A stretch of 64,000 nt of DNA from Chloroflexota bacterium. Its GTDB lineage: Bacteria > Chloroflexota > Dehalococcoidia > UBA2979. The position numbers and the translations under genes are program-made. The notes under the pieces were generated by a model that worked only from the letters and a program-made list of their open reading frames with translations, did not search any database and was not told where the DNA came from. The stretch is from the NCBI GenBank assembly GCA_027593235.1, contig JAQCIU010000001.1:191660-255659 (forward strand). The letters are read 5' to 3'. Of the stretch, positions 55,746 through 64,000 are shown piece by piece. How positions within the stretch are numbered: the first letter of the stretch is position 1; each line of letters opens with the position of its first letter.

Positions 55746-56120
55746 CTACCGCGGCTTCGGCTTCGGCTTCGGCTTCGCTCGCGTGGTCGCCTTCGGGCGC
55801 AGCGTGCGGGCGTGCGCCACGCTCTGCGCAAACAACAGCTCGCACTCCTCGACAGCCTCCAGGATCGCGTCGGGGACCGCGACGTAGTCCTTCATCACGC
55901 GCCCGTACTGCTCGACGATCGCGTCCGGGTGGCGTTCGAGGAACGCGGTGCGGGCCGCTGAGGGAAGAAGGAAGGCGAGTGCGCCGTCCGGCGCCAGGAA
56001 ACTGAACATGTTCCCGTTCAGCGCGGTGTACGGCATGGTCTGGCCCTTGCGGTCCACGTCCGGCAGCGCGCTGACGAGCGCTTCGTAGATCGCGAGCTTC
56101 CTGTCCCGGGACAACGGCAT
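55746..56120 (-). CDS. TfoX-N-like hypothetical protein
   Basis: MPYTALNGNMFSFL...YGRVMKDYVAVP; KPKPKPKP tail. Confidence 0.7.
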   Translation of the reverse strand: MPLSRDRKLAIYEALVSALPDVDRKGQTMPYTALNGNMFSFLAPDGALAFLLPSAARTAFLERHPDAIVEQYGRVMKDYVAVPDAILEAVEECELLFAQSVAHARTLRPKATTRAKPKPKPKPR

Positions 56121-56474
56121 GCGGTCATTCCCCGTTCGCGTTCGCGGTTCGCGCGCCCTCAGCGTAGCGTCGACGCTTGCTCCCACCCGCGCGCGCGGTC
56201 ACTCCGCTTCTGTGTACCCAGACCATAGACTTCCCCCGATCAGCACGAATACGATCGGGGTTCCGGTGCCGGCCGCGCGGCGGCACCGCGAGGGTCCGCG
56301 ATCGCCGCTCGGCGATCGGTGCGGAGGCCCGCGGGCACGAGGGATCGTGCCCGACGACAGAGCCCGGATGGATCGATGGTGTGTGCAGACGACCAAGGTG
56401 AATCGCGTGAAGAACGCTGGTGATCCCCGGTCGTGGCGGCACATCGCCGAAGGTCCAATCGCGGGGCCTCGCTA

Positions 56475-57299
56475 ATGGAAGAGCGAATCGAACAGCTCCG
56501 ACGCCTGCTCCAGCAGACGGTGCGCGGCGCCTCGATCTGGTGGAAGGCGCAAACCGTGATGGTTCGTCGTGGATTGCTCGGAGCGCTGGGCGCCCTCGGG
56601 CTGATGGTCGTGCTCGGCGCGTTGGTTGCCAGCAGCGCGGATGGCGCTCCGGGCGTCGTCGCCCGCCTTCGCTCCGGCGCCACGCCGGGCGGCACACCCG
56701 GTGGGTCCGCTACCGGTTCGCCAACCGCCTCGGAGACACCGACACCGGAGCCGCCGATCGGGAGCATCTCCGAACTAGTCTCGGAGTTCGGCGATCCGCC
56801 GGGGTACAACTTCGCGCGCCTGCGAATACCGCTGCTGGCGGTTGATGCACCCGTGGGGATCAGCATTGTCGATGGATCGGCCGGTGCACAGCTCGGCATT
56901 CCGGAGGGTCCTGCCACCGTCTTCTGGTACGACATGAGCGCCTGGCAGGACCTGGGTGGTCGTCCCGGTGAGGGACGCAACGCCATCTTCGGCGCCCACG
57001 CAGACATCTCCGGATACCTTCCCTACGCGGACGTGAATTATCACGGCCCTGCCGTCTTCCGGGATCTGGCCCTGCTGCAGCCCGGAGACCAGATCTTCAT
57101 CGACTACAACGGTGAATCGCTCCAGTACGTGGTTCAGTGGAGCGATCAGGTGGAGCCAGGCAACCTCTCGCGCTGGAGCGAGATCTGGAGCGACTCAGTC
57201 GAGACGGATTCGATCACCCTTTATACCTGCGGTGGCGATTTCGACTACGACTCGCGGGAATACGCCGACCGCGTTGTCGTGCGCGCCGCGCGTTCGTAG
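56475..57299 (+). CDS. Class F sortase
   Basis: N-terminal TM, LRIP, WY, GRPGEGRNAIFGAH, L..LQPGD, ITLYTCGG and RVVVRA. Confidence 0.88.
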   Translation: MEERIEQLRRLLQQTVRGASIWWKAQTVMVRRGLLGALGALGLMVVLGALVASSADGAPGVVARLRSGATPGGTPGGSATGSPTASETPTPEPPIGSISELVSEFGDPPGYNFARLRIPLLAVDAPVGISIVDGSAGAQLGIPEGPATVFWYDMSAWQDLGGRPGEGRNAIFGAHADISGYLPYADVNYHGPAVFRDLALLQPGDQIFIDYNGESLQYVVQWSDQVEPGNLSRWSEIWSDSVETDSITLYTCGGDFDYDSREYADRVVVRAARS

Positions 57300-57388
57300 C
57301 CCCTCGACCCGCCCGTCGTCCGATCCGCGAGTTGCCTCGCGACTGTCGAGGCGCTTCGGCGCTCCGTGACCCGACGGGGTGGCGCGCG

Positions 57389-57516
57389 TCAGAGGCGGCA
57401 CGCCTCGGCGCCACGCGCGCCCTCGGTCATCGGCGCGCCGTGTGGCAAGTGACGTCGTAGAGGTAGATCCCCTCCACGGTTGCGCCGCTGAAGTTCGCAC
57501 CGGTGAGGTCGACCGC
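57389..57516 (-). pseudogene. 3' remnant of a pentapeptide-repeat gene cut by the element at 57517
   Basis: Reads AVDLTGANFSGATVEGIYLYDVTC, then with a one-base shift (P)HGAPMTEGARGAEACRL*. Confidence 0.6.
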
Positions 57517-58347
57517 TGTGGGGCGCCAAAACCTCATCCGCTATTCTTCGGGCCATTGATCAGTGAGCTGATTGGCACGGAACCGCATGAAGAGCCTGCG
57601 TGCCCGTCTCGCATCGCGACTCGACCTCGTGCTCCAGAACGTCGCTCTGCACCATCAGCTGATGGTCCTCGAACGCAGCAACCGGAGGTTGCGTGCTCGG
57701 ACGTTCGACGGCTCTGACCGCTGGTTGTGGGTCCTCCTCTCCCGGTGGTGGCCTCGCTGGCGCGAGGCCCTGACGATCATTCAGCCGCAAACGGTTGTGC
57801 GCTGGCGGCGCACTCCCTGGTGGCGGCACGCATTCCAAAGACGAACGCGCCGCGGCGGCCGTCCGCGCATCTCAGCGGAACTCCAGGCCCTGATCCCAAG
57901 GATGCAGGCGGAGAACCCGCGCTGGGGAAGCATGCGCATCCTCGGGGAGCTGAAGAAGCTCGGTTTCGAGGTGAGCAACTCAAGCGTGAGGCGCTACCGG
58001 GGCAGGGCTCACCAACGCCCTTGGGGCCAGAGTTGGCGGACGTTCTTCTACAACCACGCGCCCTACGCGCAGGAAGCACTCCAGGAGGCGATCGACGAGC
58101 GCACGCGACGCGCGTTGGAGACGTTGCTGAGTCGGTTCGGCCTATGGCGCCGCGCTCGACGACGGTCGCTGCCGACCGGTGAACCGGTGCTGATTCGGGA
58201 ACTCCCGCTCAAGCCGACCGCTGTCACAGGCGTCAGCCGGCAACGGTCGTCCGAAGCGGGTACCTCGAACTCCCAGCAGTCGCGTGCCAGCCCCGATGGT
58301 GGCTCGCGGGCCGCGTAGTGCTGAAGATGAGGTTTTGGCGCCCCACA
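57517..58347 (+). mobile_element. Non-autonomous IS481-like element, copy 1 (831 bp)
   Basis: Perfect 22-bp TIRs TGTGGGGCGCCAAAACCTCATC (57517-57538 and 58326-58347); transposase N-terminal ORF. Confidence 0.85.
57587..58318 (+). CDS. Transposase N-terminal/HTH half with no DDE (rve) domain
   Basis: NVALHHQL..DR..W..LSRWW..IIQPQTVVRW..GRP..M.AENPRWG..RILGELKKLG..SWRTFFYNH; no catalytic core follows. Confidence 0.8.
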   Translation: MKSLRARLASRLDLVLQNVALHHQLMVLERSNRRLRARTFDGSDRWLWVLLSRWWPRWREALTIIQPQTVVRWRRTPWWRHAFQRRTRRGGRPRISAELQALIPRMQAENPRWGSMRILGELKKLGFEVSNSSVRRYRGRAHQRPWGQSWRTFFYNHAPYAQEALQEAIDERTRRALETLLSRFGLWRRARRRSLPTGEPVLIRELPLKPTAVTGVSRQRSSEAGTSNSQQSRASPDGGSRAA

Positions 58348-58424
58348 GGTTGAGCTTTAGTGCGCGACGCATCCTCGACCCGCTCGGTGCCGCCGACGAT
58401 CGCCCGCTGCCGCTCCGAACCGTC

Positions 58425-61400
58425 TCAGGACTTGGGAACCTCAAGAAGCTCGGCCAGCTGATCCGAGAGCGGGTTCTGAAGCCTCCAGCGGACCGTGATC
58501 GGCTTCTGGCCTTCCCACCCTACGAAGTGGACGTCACCACAGAAGATGAAGGGCGCGGCTTGCCCACCCAGCTTTCCCGTCTTGCGAATCAGCAGGTGCA
58601 CCGGGATATTGCGTTCGGCGTGCTGGCTGATTGCTTGGCCCGCTCCGCTCTCCTGCGTATGCCGGTTCTGACTCCTCCACTCGAACAGATCGCGGCTCAA
58701 AAACCGATCAGCGTATCGGTGCTCTTGCGGCATTCCACTCTTGTCGAGCGTAACCAACAAGAAGAGGTGACCGCCCTCCGAGATATATCCCTGCTGCCAG
58801 AGCGCGCTTCTGAATTCAAGCCCAAACGCTGGGGGGATGTCGGCTCGCATGTAGCTTCGGCCCACCTCCAAGCCCTCCTCGACTGCCGTGCGTTGCATCG
58901 GCTCAAGGGCCCAGATATCGTCCCGCCGGACGAACCGGACTTGGTAGCCCGTGCCCGGCAGGCCGGCGTCTTCTCCGAACCAGCTGCGTAGCAGCTCCGG
59001 AAGTACGTTCTCGCGACTGCCAGGGCGACGCATGATGTTGACCGCTACCTTGGCGAAGTTGGCCTCGTATTCCTTGTCGGCGATTACAACCTGCGTCCAG
59101 TCGGAGGGGATCGCCGGGCGAGTCTCGCGCGGAGGCAAGAAGAGCAGAGGGCGCCCGCCCGCATGGCTCACCCGGCACACGAACGATCCGGTGTCCTCGT
59201 CCGATGATCCATCGCCGGTCCGCAGTCGGTCGATGTATTCGGCAAGCCGCCACTCGGCGATCTCCTGCACTAGGTCACCCAGCGCCTCACGGTCATCGTC
59301 TCCGACTTTGAGGGTCGTGCGGAAGATCCCTTCCTCGTACTCGAAGAATGAAGCTGCCCCGGTTCCCTTGCCCTCGATCCACGCAGCGATGGGCTGCGTG
59401 ACGAGCGTTCTCTCGAGCGCCTGGTCGTCGTCGAGTGGGATCGAAAAGTCGCGCTGAAGGATCGCGGATCGTCGCGCCAGGCGACGGATACCATCACGGA
59501 GGATGTCGATTCGAATCTCGCCCGGGAAACAGTTCGCCTGCAGCATCGCCTCCAACACGAGGAACTTGTAACTGCGCGTCATCGGAGTGGTCTCGAGAAC
59601 CTTCAGAAAGCTGGCGCTCGGCTCGTCGCGGACCAGCCGCTTCGAACGCTCATTCAGGTCTCCCATCGCGTCGACGAAGCGGAGCCACGAGCCGTAACCC
59701 TGGCGCACCGACCTTGGGCGGTAGCCCTCGTGGTGCATCTCAGACGCTGTGGGCCGAGCGCCGTACCGCTCGCGGAAGTCCTCGTAGAAGAAACGAATCG
59801 CGGCGTCGCCTGACCCCAGGCGAAGGAGTGATTGCAGAATGTCAATTGCCTCGAGGTCGTATGTGACTTCACAGCCCGGAGGAAGATCGGCTTCTCCCCG
59901 CTGCAACCGCTCGAGTTGGCGGGCAATCTCTGCATCCCCGCCGGACAGATCGAACAGCGTCTGTGGCTTGAGCAAGAATGTTCGATGGTTGCCGATGTAA
60001 TCGACGACCGTGAGCCGTTGCTTGCCCACCGCCTTGCGAAGTCCGCGGCCAAATTGCTGCAGCCAGAGGATCCTCGATTCGGTTGGCCGGAGCATCATCA
60101 CGGTGTCGACGTTGGGGAGGTCCACGCCCTCGTTGAACATGTCTACCGCGAATACGACATCGAGTTCGCCGCCGGCCAGCTGCTCGAGGGATCCAACTCG
60201 AGGATCGCTGGTCGTGTCCGAGTGCACGGCTGCCGCCCGCACGCCCGCGCTCAAGAAGAACTCTCGCATGAAGTCCGCGTGACGCGTCGAGCAGCAAAAA
60301 GCCAGCGTCTGCTTTCCGCCACGCAGACGGTACTGTTCCAGAACGTTCTCCGCGCGTGCTCTTGTGGCGACTGCTTCGGTGAGCGCTGTCTCATCGAACC
60401 GGCTGCTGCGCCAGGGAATGTTGGCGTAGTCGACCTCATCGGGAACACCAAAGTAATGGAACGGGGAGAGCAATTCCTCGCGGATGCCCTCAGCCAGATC
60501 GCAGCGAAAGACCATGTTCTCCTGACACAGCGTGAGGAGGTCTCCACCATCCGTTCGCTCGGGAGTGGCCGTCAGGCCGAGCAGGAACTTCGGCTCGAAG
60601 TAGTTAATGAGTCGCCGATAGGTCCGGGCAGAAGCGTGATGGAACTCGTCCACCACGATGTAGTCGAAGTCTTCCCGTGCGAAGCGACCCAGGTGCGCCT
60701 CTCGTCCAATCGTCTGGATCGAAGCAAAGACGACTTCCGCATCCGGAGTCTTCTCTTGTCCCGTGTAGAGGCCTAGATGTGCGGTGGGACGGATCCGTCG
60801 GTAGGTCGCCATCGCCTGACGGAGGATCTCATCGCGGTGCGCGACGAAGAGGACGCGACGGTATTCGGGTCGCGTACTGTCGAAGGCTGAGAGCCACGTC
60901 TTGCCGAGTCCGGTGGCCAACACCACAAGACCTGCGGAGTTGCCAGCCTCCCGGGTGGCTTCGAGGGCGGCAAGGGCCTGCCGCTGGATCGAGTGGGGTT
61001 CCGGAGGCGGAGGAGCGGGTTCGGGTACGACTTCCGCGGGTGCGGCTCGAGGAACCCGTGTCGCGCGGTACTCGTCGACCCACGCCGCGTCGATCACGCG
61101 AACCTTTGGGTGGTTGAGCAGGTCCTCGAACGCGACCCGTACGTCCGCGAACCTCGTCTCATCTCGGGAAGGAATGATCCGGTAATTCCACTCGAGTCCC
61201 GTGGTCAACGCGGGGCGGGTGAGGTTCGAGCTTCCGACGAGCGCGACGCCCGGTCCTTCTCGATCCGCCTGGTCGTAGAAGAGGTAGGCCTTGGGATGAA
61301 AGCTCTGCTCGTCCGCCTCGAAAGCGCGCAAATCCAATCGGTCGGGCCACCGTTCCTTGAGATCTAGGAGTTGAAGGAGCGCTGTGGGATCGGTGACACC

Positions 61401-62051
61401 GAGGTACGTCCCGGTCACGATCCGCAGGTGACCGCCGCGCTCGATGAGGTCCTGCAGATGCGCTCCGAGCAACTGCACCCCGCTCTCGAGCAGGAACGCG
61501 ACCGCGAAATCCGCCGCGTTCGCGAGATCGAGGTAGGCACGGACATGTGGCAGGAGCGGATCGTCTCCTCCCGTGATGAGTGCAGGCCGATGCGGGAGAT
61601 GTCGCGCTAACGCAGATTCCCCCTCGACACCCCCGAGGTGCCCAGCTTCACCTTGGGGCCGTGACACCGCTGCGAGGTAGTCTGCCTTGTCCGGCAGCAC
61701 GGATCGGACGCCGCCGCGCGGATTCGCGATATCGCCCGCGAACCGTGGAATCACATGCAGGTGGAGGTGCTCGACAGTTTGTCCCGCAGCCTCACCAATG
61801 TTGACGCCGATGTTGAAGCCGTCAGGACGCCGCACCTTTTCGATCTCTTGCTTCGCGAGGTTGATGCCGGCGAGCAACTCCGCTTGTTCGTCAGAGGTAG
61901 CGTCGAACCACGACACGACGTGGCGCTTCGGAATCAGAAGCGCATGCCCTGGACTCACGGGAAATGCGTCCCACAGACCAAGCGTGAGCGAACCAGCTTG
62001 GAAGATGCGCTCCGCTGCGGGCGCACAGAACGGGCACAGCGCTTCGCTCAT
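58425..62051 (-). CDS. HIT-PLD nuclease-SF2 helicase-DUF3427 protein (SauUSI-like type IV restriction enzyme with HIT fusion), 1208 aa
   Basis: CPFC..SPGH..HLHLHVIPR; FHPKAY..GSSNLT; LATGLGKT, DEFHH, GLTATP, QQFGRGLR; MTRSYK; LLVTLDK..Y.DRF...FEWRSQN. Confidence 0.9.
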   Translation of the reverse strand: MSEALCPFCAPAAERIFQAGSLTLGLWDAFPVSPGHALLIPKRHVVSWFDATSDEQAELLAGINLAKQEIEKVRRPDGFNIGVNIGEAAGQTVEHLHLHVIPRFAGDIANPRGGVRSVLPDKADYLAAVSRPQGEAGHLGGVEGESALARHLPHRPALITGGDDPLLPHVRAYLDLANAADFAVAFLLESGVQLLGAHLQDLIERGGHLRIVTGTYLGVTDPTALLQLLDLKERWPDRLDLRAFEADEQSFHPKAYLFYDQADREGPGVALVGSSNLTRPALTTGLEWNYRIIPSRDETRFADVRVAFEDLLNHPKVRVIDAAWVDEYRATRVPRAAPAEVVPEPAPPPPEPHSIQRQALAALEATREAGNSAGLVVLATGLGKTWLSAFDSTRPEYRRVLFVAHRDEILRQAMATYRRIRPTAHLGLYTGQEKTPDAEVVFASIQTIGREAHLGRFAREDFDYIVVDEFHHASARTYRRLINYFEPKFLLGLTATPERTDGGDLLTLCQENMVFRCDLAEGIREELLSPFHYFGVPDEVDYANIPWRSSRFDETALTEAVATRARAENVLEQYRLRGGKQTLAFCCSTRHADFMREFFLSAGVRAAAVHSDTTSDPRVGSLEQLAGGELDVVFAVDMFNEGVDLPNVDTVMMLRPTESRILWLQQFGRGLRKAVGKQRLTVVDYIGNHRTFLLKPQTLFDLSGGDAEIARQLERLQRGEADLPPGCEVTYDLEAIDILQSLLRLGSGDAAIRFFYEDFRERYGARPTASEMHHEGYRPRSVRQGYGSWLRFVDAMGDLNERSKRLVRDEPSASFLKVLETTPMTRSYKFLVLEAMLQANCFPGEIRIDILRDGIRRLARRSAILQRDFSIPLDDDQALERTLVTQPIAAWIEGKGTGAASFFEYEEGIFRTTLKVGDDDREALGDLVQEIAEWRLAEYIDRLRTGDGSSDEDTGSFVCRVSHAGGRPLLFLPPRETRPAIPSDWTQVVIADKEYEANFAKVAVNIMRRPGSRENVLPELLRSWFGEDAGLPGTGYQVRFVRRDDIWALEPMQRTAVEEGLEVGRSYMRADIPPAFGLEFRSALWQQGYISEGGHLFLLVTLDKSGMPQEHRYADRFLSRDLFEWRSQNRHTQESGAGQAISQHAERNIPVHLLIRKTGKLGGQAAPFIFCGDVHFVGWEGQKPITVRWRLQNPLSDQLAELLEVPKS

Positions 62052-62581
62052 GTTCCTGCGCCATCCCGCAGCGGCAGTCGTGTTATGACCAGTTGTCCTT
62101 CGAGCCCGTCGCTGCGGCACGCCGCGCAGCGCCAACGGCGAACTACTCTCCGCGCAACGCGCGATGCGTGGCAAACAGGGCAGCGATGTGCCCAGACCGG
62201 CCGAGATCGCCTGCGCGAGGGAGCGAGTCCTTCTAGAAGCTCAGCGGGCACCCGTGTGCGCGGCTCGAAGCCGGCTGCTTGGACTAGTTCTCGCCACTCG
62301 GGTCCGTGTGGCCTCGGCCCGAGCCCGTGCAGCTCGTGGATCGCCGCGTGAGCGGCCTCGTGACAGAGCGCCTCGTGAAGGAGCACCAACGGCCCATCGA
62401 GTAGAAACGCCGCCAGTCGGATCTCACCCGAAGCAGGTGCGCATCGACCCAGAGACGTCTGGAATCGCCGGCTGAACGACAGGGAGAGACGGTCATGGAG
62501 GCCAGGGAGCCCCCACAGCCCGCCGTAGCGCGCGATGATGGTGCGTAACTCCTCAGCTTGTGGATCGGGCCGATCCCTCAT
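62048..62581 (-). CDS. SprT-like zinc metalloprotease
   Basis: FSRRFQTSLGRC..IRL, LCHEAAH (HExxH), HGPEWR and C-terminal CPVC..CAAC; ATGA overlap with the downstream gene. Confidence 0.85.
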   Translation of the reverse strand: MRDRPDPQAEELRTIIARYGGLWGLPGLHDRLSLSFSRRFQTSLGRCAPASGEIRLAAFLLDGPLVLLHEALCHEAAHAAIHELHGLGPRPHGPEWRELVQAAGFEPRTRVPAELLEGLAPSRRRSRPVWAHRCPVCHASRVARRVVRRWRCAACRSDGLEGQLVITRLPLRDGAGT

Positions 62582-62588
62582 GTGGGCC

Positions 62589-62597
62589 ACGCTACCA
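62589..62597 (-). promoter_or_regulatory. Extended -10 (TGgTAGCGT) 7 nt upstream of the SprT ATG: leaderless promoter
   Basis: Same geometry as other -10/start pairs in this window; no SD. Confidence 0.45.
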
Positions 62598-63138
62598 TGC
62601 GTCGGCCAGCGGGCGCGTTGCCAGTCAGCGGCAGCCCGTCCGTTCCTCTCCGTCCCTACGCATCAGTCTGATCGAGATTCCGGAGATCGGCGATGATGCC
62701 GACGAGTCCGTCGATTACAGCCTCCGGGTTGTCGCTGACCTGGGCAGGCGTCATTCGCCGGGCAGAAACTCCTTCGCTTGACGTATCGGCGCCCGGACCG
62801 CCGCGGAAAGTTCCGGGCCGCTCGCAACCACGTTCATGTCAGATCAGCTGGCGCTCTGCCCGGAGACCGAGAAACGCCGTCACTGCTGGACGGATGCAGT
62901 TTTGCCGCCCTATACGGGCGAGATCGACTGGCGGGACAGAGCATCGACTAGCGGATCGCCCAGACCCTGCGCCTCGCGCCTTCCCGGTGAGGCTCAAGGA
63001 GCGGGTACTCGGCACGCGGCTCCATCAGCCTTGCCCAGTAAAGCTCCGGAAGGTCGATGATCGCGTCTTCGTCGAACTGCCTGCTTCTGTTGACTCAGCA
63101 TCGCCGCGTGGACCAGCCACCCGGCTTTCTGGCCATCC

Positions 63139-63952
63139 TGTGGGGCGCCCCGCATCTGCAGTGTCACGCGGCCCGCGCGCCACGGTCTGGGCTGGCACGG
63201 GACGGATGAGAGTTCGAGACAGCTGCCCTGCGGAAACGTTGACGGACACCTGTGACGGCGGTCGGCCTAAGCGGGAATCCCCGACGTAGCAGCGGGCCAC
63301 CAGCAGGCGGCGGCCGTCGTCGAGCGCGGTGCCGACTCAGCAATGTCTCCAACGCGCGCCGCGTGCGCACGTCGACCGCCCCTTGCAGCGCCTCCCGGAC
63401 GTAGGGAGCGTGGTTGTAGAAAAACGTCCGCCAACTCTGGCCACGAGAGTGGCGGCGCGTGGTGCGCCGGTAGCGCCGCACGCTTGAGTTGCTTACCTCG
63501 AAACCGAGCTTCTTCAGCTCCCCGAGGATGCGCATGCTTCCCCAGCGCGGATTCTCCGCCTGCATCCGCGGAATCAGGGCCTGGAGTTCAGCTGAGATGC
63601 GCGGACGGCCGCCGCGACACCTTCGTCTGTGGAGTAGGTGTCGCCACCAGGGAATGCGCCGCCAGCGCACGACCCTCTGCGGCTGGACGATCGCTAGCTG
63701 TACTGACGCCAGCGAGGCCACCACCGGGAGAGAAGGATCCACAGTGAGCGGTCCGAGCCGTTGAACGTCCGAGCGCGCGACCTGCGGTCGCGGCGCTCGA
63801 GCACCGTCAGCTGATGATGCAGAGCCATGTTCTCGAGCACGAGGTCGAGCCGTGACACGAGGCGGGCACGCAAGCTCTTCATCCTGTTCCGTGCCGATCA
63901 GCTCATTGATCATTGGCCCGAAGAATAGCGGATGAGGTTTTGGCGCCCCACA
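63139..63952 (-). mobile_element. Non-autonomous IS481-like element, copy 2 (814 bp), inverted
   Basis: Intact TIR at 63931-63952; degenerate TIR at 63139 (AAAA deleted); colinear with copy 1. Confidence 0.85.
63164..63882 (-). pseudogene. Frameshifted copy of the DDE-less transposase ORF
   Basis: ORF-track pieces 63694-63882 and 63164-63913 join at a frameshift near 63700; ends ..RAA* like copy 1. Confidence 0.8.
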
Positions 63953-64000
63953 GCCCCGCGTTCCTTCGGATGATTCGTGCAGCGAAAGAGGGGCAGTTCG

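Follow-up and report, generated by a model that had tools for sequence, protein, structure and literature searches.

INTRODUCTION

Transposase products that consist only of the DNA-binding part are known from several systems, among them OrfA of the IS3 family, InsA of IS1, and the KP product in flies. OrfA of IS911 modulates OrfAB through a leucine zipper, and KP is a recent, internally deleted, repressor-encoding derivative of the P element in a eukaryote, Drosophila, whose product carries a THAP domain. Insertion sequences (ISs) of the IS3/IS481 superfamily have terminal inverted repeats that end in 5'-TG..CA-3'. Non-autonomous elements of bacteria are normally kept rare by cis preference and are usually described either as non-coding, as with the often numerous MITEs (miniature inverted-repeat transposable elements), or as cargo cassettes. 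According to one report (PMC2909936), the IS911 fragment OrfAB[1-149], which lacks the DDE domain, forms stable and specific complexes with the IS ends, which full-length OrfAB does not do efficiently. In PIF/Harbinger elements, as stated in a second report (PMC2836001), a Myb-like DNA-binding protein encoded by ORF1 accompanies the transposase, such that end binding and catalysis reside on separate proteins. Here we describe a mini-IS in a 64,000-nucleotide stretch of DNA from a Chloroflexota bacterium of the class Dehalococcoidia (GCA_027593235.1, contig JAQCIU010000001.1, positions 191,660 to 255,659), which we call the window. A 50-codon block that is conserved between its two copies is the second helix-turn-helix (HTH) of the protein from this non-autonomous, protein-coding element of about 0.83 kb, which has 24- to 26-bp ends of the form 5'-TG...CA-3'.

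RESULTS

A conserved block in a transposase relative that lacks its catalytic core

The window holds two copies of the mini-IS, inverted relative to each other: copy A, whose reading frame is intact, and copy B, which has decayed (Table 1). Using Nei-Gojobori counts over 236 comparable codons, we found 55 synonymous (S) and 62 nonsynonymous (N) differences overall, with a dN/dS ratio (omega) of 0.35 for the whole gene. The block (57851-58000 in A, 63467-63616 in B) contained 7.0 S and 0 N differences over 37 S sites and 113 N sites, with a dS of 0.22. A first-pass annotation of the window had reported 7 synonymous and 0 nonsynonymous differences over these 50 codons, and our own count is identical. 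It had also described the flanks as rich in amino acid changes, and they are, with 6 S and 12 N differences upstream (57767-57850; omega 0.64) and 26.5 S and 38.5 N differences downstream (58001-58315; omega 0.50). The longest replacement-free run among the 236 codons coincided exactly with these 50 codons, and none of 20,000 shuffles of the codon columns yielded any 50-codon window without a replacement. Therefore, the conservation of the block is real and not due to chance.

Both copies lack an integrase core, as had been proposed. HTH_32 was the sole Pfam match in the 243-amino-acid (aa) product of copy A (residues 82 to 137; E = 6.6e-4, below the cut-off), and the elements measure just 833 and 816 bp. 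In P0023, a protein of the same clade, this domain scored 37.3 bits against a cut-off of 33.7, and the NCBIfam IS481 model scored 20.6 bits on the copy A protein, in its N-terminal part only, against a cut-off of 224. Copy A extends 30 nt past the stop codon of its open reading frame (ORF) and then ends. No DDE match was found downstream in any frame, either in copy A or in the other loci of its kind (A-type loci), so that the overlapping frame expected of an OrfA-type gene is absent. The gene caller used on this genome had kept just an internal 138-aa piece of the protein (P0006), and database entries name such proteins "hypothetical" or "putative transposase."

Copy A does not encode the DDE (rve) core of an autonomous IS3/IS481-superfamily member. 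It has the inverted ends of a parent IS without a transposase of its own, as a MITE does, but it retains coding capacity (an intact 243-aa ORF with a core omega of 0.16 to 0.45) and has a low copy number, with two copies and a 69-nt fragment in an assembly that is 89.7% complete. As in KP, an internal deletion has left both ends and the N-terminal DNA-binding part.

The first-pass annotation had further described a replacement C-terminus, shared by both copies and ending just before the inverted repeat. Both protein ends are indeed located there (..SRASPDGGSRAA-stop in A and ..SRASPDRGARAA-stop in B, both just inside the right inverted repeat), but the last two codons, the stop codon, and the adjoining sequence are common to full-length relatives, and therefore the very end of the "replacement" is original. 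The right end has been kept, with the frame ending in ..AA-stop beside the right inverted repeat in mini and full-length elements alike.

The DDE-less elements form one long-lived clade

A search of 5.8 billion clustered proteins gave 107 matches among 2,435 candidates, the best being proteins of 235 to 250 aa with 99 to 100% query coverage and identity down to 48%. Copy A and 19 database proteins were chosen as a set of 20 rows by their length (225 to 262 aa), AA at the end, and the junction motif. This junction, NH[AG]PY (..W.TF..NH[AG]PY..), is common to all DDE-less A-type members and is followed by a helix of the form PY.[RQ][ED]AL.E..D.RTRR.LE.L. Protein identity within the clade reaches down to 47%. 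In a 77-row tree built on the N-terminal 146 columns, all 26 DDE-less rows fell into a single clade (SH-aLRT 99) nested among full-length enzymes of the Dehalococcoidia type. After 135 representatives had been added (212 rows, FastTree), the 28 A-type rows again formed one clade with a local support of 100, and P0150, in which the DDE core is present, fell outside it. The earlier claim that the two copies diverged after the loss of catalysis is borne out, since all DDE-less relatives share one junction and one clade. The element descends from an IS of the IS3/IS481 superfamily (rve, DDE) whose whole catalytic core was lost once, founding a long-lived clade within which three or more subclades have since separated.

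The mini-IS protein is homologous to full-length enzymes only as far as ..WRTFFYNHA, and no relative of residues 156 to 233 was detected by hhalign or blastx. The blastx search of the tail in three frames against full-length proteins gave nothing better than an E value of 1.3. The first-pass annotation had singled out the C-terminal part for profile comparison; run with hhalign on the 20-row tail profile, this gave an E value of 0.24 against a 48-row full-length profile and 0.33 against the clade's own N-terminal part, and no relative was recognized. In the subclade comprising L123, L126, L130, and P0015, the otherwise variable tail carries a Cys/His motif, WLCRC..C....H, about 35 residues before its end, which is absent from the lineage of copy A.

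Metagenome contigs supplied the DNA of further members (L123 to L130), with elements of 0.80 to 0.84 kb. Intact frames were found in 6 of the 11 loci for which DNA is at hand (A and L123 to L127), and 5 were broken (B, L093, L128, L129, and L130). L129 and L130 have the same stop, and L093 is frameshifted and abutted by the end of another IS. This mix of intact and broken copies is the birth-and-death pattern that mobile elements show, not one of a host gene.

The closest named locus came from a Dehalococcoidia metagenome-assembled genome, and near-identical DNA was present in aquatic, estuary, and marine-sediment runs of several studies. A scan of genome contigs returned mostly full-length relatives, the sole A-type locus being the copy in genome G001 (L013). 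A search of 401 genomes of the phylum gave three foreign matches at E <= 1e-50, which were either of full-length size (349-aa frames) or of a frameshifted full-length type (L207). Matches in the protein atlas were just unnamed clusters of 166 to 194 aa with HTH_32.

Purifying selection on the DNA-binding part across the family

To extend the comparison beyond the window, we used 21 pairs among the seven elements with DNA and an alignable frame (A, L123 to L127, and L130); the omega values of the core, the junction helix, and the tail are given in Table 1. Core differences by codon position ranked 3 > 1 > 2. In the four pairs subjected to Fisher tests of pS versus pN, p ran from 3e-8 to 4e-12 in the core, from 9e-3 to 7e-7 in the junction helix, and from 0.17 to 0.001 in the tail, an internal control close to neutrality. 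Purifying selection acts on the N-terminal helix and on both DNA-binding subdomains, and the C-terminal tail drifts.

These results widen the first-pass annotation, which had placed the selection on the HTH block. The block is conserved, but the selected part is the whole of the N-terminal 155 to 183 residues and not the HTH block alone. With more copies, dN/dS by region was not near 1 (0.16 to 0.45 in the core), and the proposal that a DDE-less end-binding protein stayed under selection after the loss of catalysis holds across the family, beyond the two copies from which it was drawn.

Gene conversion from autonomous copies had been raised as another possible cause of the block. We found no donor that was close enough, and the block has a dS of 0.22 instead of roughly 0. 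Run exhaustively on 1.84 billion representatives, phmmer returned 17,930 matches at E <= 1e-3. The best 150 included 142 new representatives, of which 23 had a DDE core, and those were at most 52% identical to A; no conversion donor with the clade's own signature residues was found among these 150. As no DDE-bearing protein among them exceeded 52% identity, conversion from an autonomous twin is unlikely.

Matched inverted ends and full-length relatives

The arms of copy A (57516-57538 and 58326-58348) are 23 nt long, 100% complementary (CTGTGGGGCGCCAAAACCTCATC), and of the 5'-TG..CA-3' end type, reading CTGTGGGG.. and ..CCCCACAG. Across the clade, the ends are 24 to 26 bp long and form matched pairs within each element. 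Elements of the L123-L130 type have GTGGGGCGCCAAAAC[CT][TC]CATC[CT]GC at both ends, with proteins that are merely about 58% identical, and one subclade (L124, L127, and L093) has ..CGCCAATATTCCATC.. at both ends, a ..AATATT.. variant.

A-type elements have a TA.AAT-like box (57541-57546 in A) about 26 nt inside the left end, which reads TATAAT in L126, TAGAAT in six loci, TACGAT in L128, and TATTCT in both A and B. No partner -35 box was found for it. A GTGAT motif follows about 43 nt in. Scanning 57400-58500 for sigma-70 promoters and terminators gave no match, and an Rfam scan of 56000-64000 found no family. Several insertions, for example, those at L127, L128, and L130, lie beside sequences that resemble the element's own end.

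As possible helpers, this genome carries three complete full-length relatives and one that is split over a contig break (C31, C49, C2, and C50/C2), with proteins of 340 to 356 aa. The N-terminal 150 or so residues of the full-length relatives are 45 to 55% identical to the mini-IS protein and are followed by the DDE core. Those on C31, C49, and C2 and at L010, L003, L004, and L032 are about 1.1 kb long and encode 340 to 360 aa. L010, from the same genus, matched Pfam rve_3 (E = 1.7e-14) and HTH_32. It scored 100 bits against the 160-bit cut-off of NCBIfam for IS3 and 91 bits against the 224-bit cut-off for IS481, and because both scores are below the cut-offs, the parent IS is a member of the IS3/IS481 superfamily without an assignable named family. 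The end type of the full-length relatives, (C/T)GTGGGG..GCAAAACC, is the same as that of the mini-IS. Relative to the latter, the C31 end (CGTGGGGTGGCAAAACC) has 3 mismatches in 17 positions and the L010 end (GTGGGGAGGCAAAACCTCATCCGC) has 2 in 24, and the motif TCAGGCGGCCC, on the reverse strand, is common to L124 or L127 and L010. Matches to the parent IS family number 42 in G001 and 11 in this genome.

Independent DDE-less derivatives in the same IS group

A second, unrelated DDE-less mini-IS was found at L024 and L143 to L145. It is about 1.0 kb long, with the ends TGTCCCTACCAAATATTCG.., and its 299-aa product combines the same N-terminal module with another tail. Its copies, on four metagenome and genome contigs, are 95.5 to 98% identical and have different flanks. 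Of three pairs, two have more than two differences; their pN/pS values were 0.07 and 0.13 over the N-terminal 170 codons and rose to 0.46 and 0.44 over the tail, the same pattern as in the A-type clade. The differences among these copies are mosaic, suggesting recombination between them. A third, independent in-frame deletion was found in genome G007 (L098, the same as L008; contig C1, about 1885447-1886211), where a 255-aa product joins the N-terminal part to the last 62 residues of the transposase. Because these two are independent of the A-type clade, derivatives that keep just the DNA-binding part arise repeatedly in this IS group.

Many of the nearest representatives at 50% clustering are also without a DDE core (P0126, P0133, P0145, P0155, P0179, P0187, P0212, and others). 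Alternative tails recur in DDE-less representatives straight after W.TF..N[HQ], for example, ..NHLGQ....GDDVVD.. and ..NQALGIG.., and may be real families or shifted frames. We rejected programmed frameshifting as the source of the other DDE-less tails among these nearest representatives; L029 and L085, the two loci whose frame changes close to the junction, break at different places and resemble ordinary mutations. We also rejected the 250-aa frames of genome G014 as members of the clade, as they are full-length-type genes that share a premature stop. The four read (L105, L109, L111, and L119) have the same premature stop after ..FLIRDRDRS, with frames of 243 to 251 aa, and the frame lengths of L113 and others match the L105-type copies in the tables. 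This shared stop is either a nonsense mutation spread by trans-mobilization or a recoding site.

Predicted structure

An AlphaFold2 model of the 243-aa protein, made from 23 sequences, had a mean pLDDT of 66. Apart from a tail predicted to be disordered, the modeled protein is all-helical and gives no hint of a catalytic fold. The modeled N-terminal helix (residues 2 to 32) has leucines at 14, 21, and 28, the predicted helices of the block (97-109, 115-124, and 131-142) reach a pLDDT near 90, and the tail (189-243), with a pLDDT below 50, is predicted to be disordered. Residues 85 to 147 aligned with the end-binding domains of TnsB (Z of 7.5, root mean square deviation of 2.8, and 63 residues aligned) and Tc3 (Z of 6.9), values that are within the noise range for helical models. 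VIA-align against all representatives gave Z scores of at most 7.5, which is within the same noise range. Foldseek found nothing in the PDB at E <= 0.001, the best match being a Pax paired domain (E = 0.35), and a profile search of PDB sequences gave 0 matches at E <= 1. Homodimer predictions for residues 1 to 190 scored 0.23 and 0.20 against a mark of 0.42, which counts neither for nor against a dimer.

The two copies and their surroundings

Against the intact 242-aa protein P0003, the two frame pieces of copy B reach identities of 98.3% over 60 aa and 92.8% over 181 aa, and copy A is 89% identical to P0001 and P0002. A and B thus belong to two sublineages of which intact members occur elsewhere, and they are not twins that diverged in place. 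The inner inverted repeat of copy B lacks 4 nt near 63150. On its outer side, 47 nt of flank lead to the contig end, at which the window closes (G000:C35:191660-255659). The last 69 nt of another contig of this genome, C21 (8870-8938), are 100% identical to positions 325 to 393 of copy A and are preceded by unrelated sequence, as in a truncated third copy or at an assembly edge. A contig of run X8, which is labeled metatranscriptomic, was made by whole-genome amplification, and may be DNA, is B-like in one half and A-like in the other.

The contig C37 ends in 73 nt identical to 57444-57516, next to the upstream part of the pentapeptide-repeat gene that is cut by copy A. In run X1, the probable source of the assembly, a 3,342-nt contig passes straight from the left flank into the C37 sequence, giving the pentapeptide-repeat gene in intact form with no element in it; the switch falls exactly at 57516. 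A second X1 contig (depth 3) skips 74 nt, 58347 to 58422, from the right tip of A, resembling an adjacent deletion. Since X1 contigs without the element exist beside the assembled copy A, occupied and unoccupied forms coexist in the sample, and the break points are the tips of the element, a sign of recent mobility or of polymorphism. The sequences to the right of A and to the right of B are not a continuation of the interrupted gene, and therefore the arrangement as it stands is not described by one simple insertion. A gene for a 288-aa sortase-domain protein (56433-57299) lies just upstream of the interrupted gene.

The stretch between the copies (58349-63137) is 4,789 bp long, has a GC content of 0.634 against 0.682 for the genome, and looks like an acquired island bordered by IS remnants. 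The product of its largest gene (1,249 aa) resembles, by its domains, a type IV methyl-directed restriction enzyme; the gene was not found in the 30 relatives searched, except for a partial helicase match in G025. The N-terminal HIT domain is an unusual fusion for an enzyme of this type. The data give no support to a working composite transposon: there is no shared flanking repeat, copy B is frameshifted with a damaged inner end, and the other family members are solitary.

TABLE 1 Features of the mini-IS copies, the encoded protein, and adjacent genes in the window
Feature	Position	Strand	Description and support
Mini-IS copy A	57516..58348	+	833 bp, intact; 23-nt arms; C37 overlap stops exactly at 57516
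Left inverted end of copy A, (C)TGTGGGGCGCCAAAACCTCATCCGC, then TAnAAT-like box (TATTCT in A)	57516..57541	+	Same 24- to 26-nt end on the left side of the 9 different A-type elements listed
Right inverted end of copy A	58326..58348	+	ORF stop codon 8 nt inside
Copy A ORF, 243 aa	57587..58318	+	ORF list and translation; Pfam; AlphaFold2 model
Parts of the ORF product (predicted)			N-terminal long helix, 2-32; first helical DNA-binding subdomain, 42-82; HTH_32, 97-142; clade-specific long helix, 150-183; disordered tail, 189-243
Conserved block, codons 89-138	57851..58000	+	GRPRI motif and three helices of second HTH
Core	residues 4-155		omega 0.16-0.45
Junction helix	residues 156-183		omega 0.07-0.60; 3 pairs saturated
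Tail	residues 184-243		omega 0.33-1.2; 5 pairs saturated
Mini-IS copy B	63138..63953	-	816 bp, decayed, sister lineage; 82.4% nucleotide identity to A over 834 aligned columns (blastn)
2-nt insertion of copy B relative to A	63698..63699	-	Frame shifted after codon 60
Copy B counterpart of the conserved block	63467..63616	-	Alignment with A
Pentapeptide-repeat gene, last 29 codons and stop, cut by copy A	57427..57516	-	Rest at end of contig C37
1,249-aa gene, HIT + PLD-like nuclease + ResIII/helicase + DUF3427	58425..62174	-	Pfam; PADLOC mREase_IV, E = 4e-113
SprT-like zinc-metalloprotease-family gene, 180 aa	62048..62590	-	Pfam SprT-like, E = 6.3e-13

DISCUSSION

We lean slightly toward the view that the mini-IS supplies its own end-binding and end-pairing protein, which would be needed for, or would regulate, its mobilization by a related transposase. 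The protein would bind the ends of its own element and pair them via the N-terminal helix, as a natural equivalent of the engineered OrfAB[1-149] of IS911. Catalysis would be provided in trans by a related IS of the same cell through its full-length transposase, and this helper may be recruited to the preloaded ends, perhaps via its homologous N-terminal helix. Only copies with a working protein would then move, and for this reason selection would act on the reading frame copy by copy, and copies that no longer move, such as B, would decay. As a side effect, or as an alternative main effect, the same protein might titrate or block the helper transposase. More tentatively, and with our doubts outweighing our confidence, we suggest that these elements could be hyperparasites of ISs that bring their own adaptor: the DDE-less protein would load in cis and capture the transposase of a related IS, thereby overcoming cis preference, and this strategy might have arisen more than once (the A-type clade and L024/L143-L145).

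Several observations weigh against an own end-binding protein that serves mobilization in trans. Binding, pairing, recruitment, and transposition are all inferred from sequence. Copies are few: this genome has two, besides the 69-nt fragment that ends C21, and G001 has one. Reference genomes seldom contain the clade (2 of the 31 relatives, including this genome), and no further member was found at E <= 1e-50 among 400 other genomes of the phylum. Full-length elements with identical ends are absent from this assembly, which is 89.7% complete. Target-site duplications are absent around A, B, and the pair, and around the other mini-elements and the full-length relatives listed; the age of the insertions or rearrangements could mask such duplications. 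All dN/dS values come from pairwise Nei-Gojobori estimates in which many pairs are saturated at synonymous sites (dS > 1), the tail alignments are uncertain, and the database proteins are biased towards open frames. A repressor that benefits the host would also give the same dN/dS pattern.

Such a repressor is the alternative that most needs weighing, although we consider it rather unlikely to be the principal explanation. The DDE-less protein would mainly block related full-length ISs, by occupying their ends or by forming dead hetero-oligomers, and would be kept since hosts suffer less IS damage; it would act like Drosophila KP, IS1 InsA, and IS911 OrfA. The element itself would spread only as a passenger of the transposase that it restrains. 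The architecture of the protein is the same as that of DNA-binding-only inhibitors such as IS1 InsA, or the Mu repressor acting against MuA, and the parent IS family abounds in the genomes that have the mini-IS, with 42 matches in G001 and 11 here. A low copy number also suits a regulator better than a successful parasite, and purifying selection is equally expected. However, the ends are perfect and matched in most copies and covary within a subclade, and a repressor gene kept by its host would not need matched ends; 5 of the 11 copies with DNA are broken, which is unusual under host-level selection; and the mini-IS ends differ at 2 to 3 positions from those of the resident full-length ISs. 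The inhibitor and the adaptor predict the same sequence pattern and are not mutually exclusive. The first-pass annotation had offered an inhibitor, a helper that recruits a transposase, and a regulator of cargo as possible functions, a choice that the sequences do not settle, with the cargo regulator the least supported of the three.

In a cargo model, the inverted copies would form a composite transposon that moved the restriction-like gene, with the HTH protein controlling this cargo. A and B do lie inverted around 4,789 bp of lower GC content (0.634 against 0.682) with type IV restriction-like and SprT-like genes, the larger of which was not found in the 30 relatives searched. We nevertheless regard the model as highly improbable: there is no direct repeat around the A-B pair, the frame of copy B is broken and its inner end is damaged, the two copies are sister lineages that are 18% diverged, the other family members examined are solitary, 0.8 kb long, and in unrelated surroundings, and the sequence to the right of B does not continue the gene interrupted to the left of A. 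Movement without a DDE transposase, for example, by a host recombinase that the HTH protein recruits, seems to us just as remote. No cognate full-length element and no target-site duplications were seen, as such movement would have it, but the ends match those of DDE-bearing relatives in type, the 3' end of the transposase gene has been kept, and the all-helical and disordered prediction contains no catalytic fold. We give the least credence of all to a block without function, produced by chance, recent common descent, or gene conversion, either from an autonomous element or between copies, a reading that the present data largely refute. The window has just two copies, the boundaries of the block were picked after the data had been seen, and recombination between copies does occur, as in the mosaic second family and the X8 contig that is half B and half A. 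Against this stand the 0 of 20,000 shuffles, a block dS of 0.22 rather than 0, the family-wide omega of 0.16 to 0.45 with the near-neutral tail as an internal control, and the lack of any DDE-bearing protein above 52% identity among the best 150 matches.

If a protein that binds its own element's ends is indeed what has been selected, a long-lived mini-IS clade with a selected end-binding half would constitute a third kind of element. It would offer a natural system in which to study the division of end recognition and catalysis among separate elements, and it would bear on how the cis preference of transposases can be bypassed or exploited, and on whether proteins of this kind tame IS expansions in IS-rich genomes. 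It is also a matter for annotation, as callers give the mini-IS proteins vague names or keep a fragment of them, such as P0006. Full-text literature searches aimed at prokaryotic mini-elements of this kind, with a coverage that excludes subscription journals, gave no description of one. The unusual feature is a prokaryotic non-autonomous element that retains exactly the DNA-binding protein under selection over a deep clade.

Among the known systems, the protein can be set beside IS911 OrfA and OrfAB[1-149], which likewise comprise the HTH and multimerization module of an rve-type transposase without the DDE domain. In IS911, however, OrfA and OrfAB are made from one autonomous element by frameshifting, whereas the mini-IS has no DDE frame at all; its long helix precedes the HTH rather than following it, and it has a conserved helix of its own (residues 150 to 183). 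Like KP, the mini-IS is an internal deletion derivative that has kept both ends, encodes the N-terminal DNA-binding part alone, and persists and spreads non-autonomously, but its deletion is old, the clade having diverged to 47% identity, and its host is a prokaryote. With MITEs and mobile insertion cassettes, it shares a short length, the inverted ends of a parent IS, the lack of a transposase, and presumed mobilization in trans; unlike MITEs, it carries a conserved, selected ORF and is present in one or two copies plus a fragment. In PIF/Harbinger, the binding protein and the transposase are both carried by one autonomous element, whereas the putative binding protein of the mini-IS stands alone on an element of its own.

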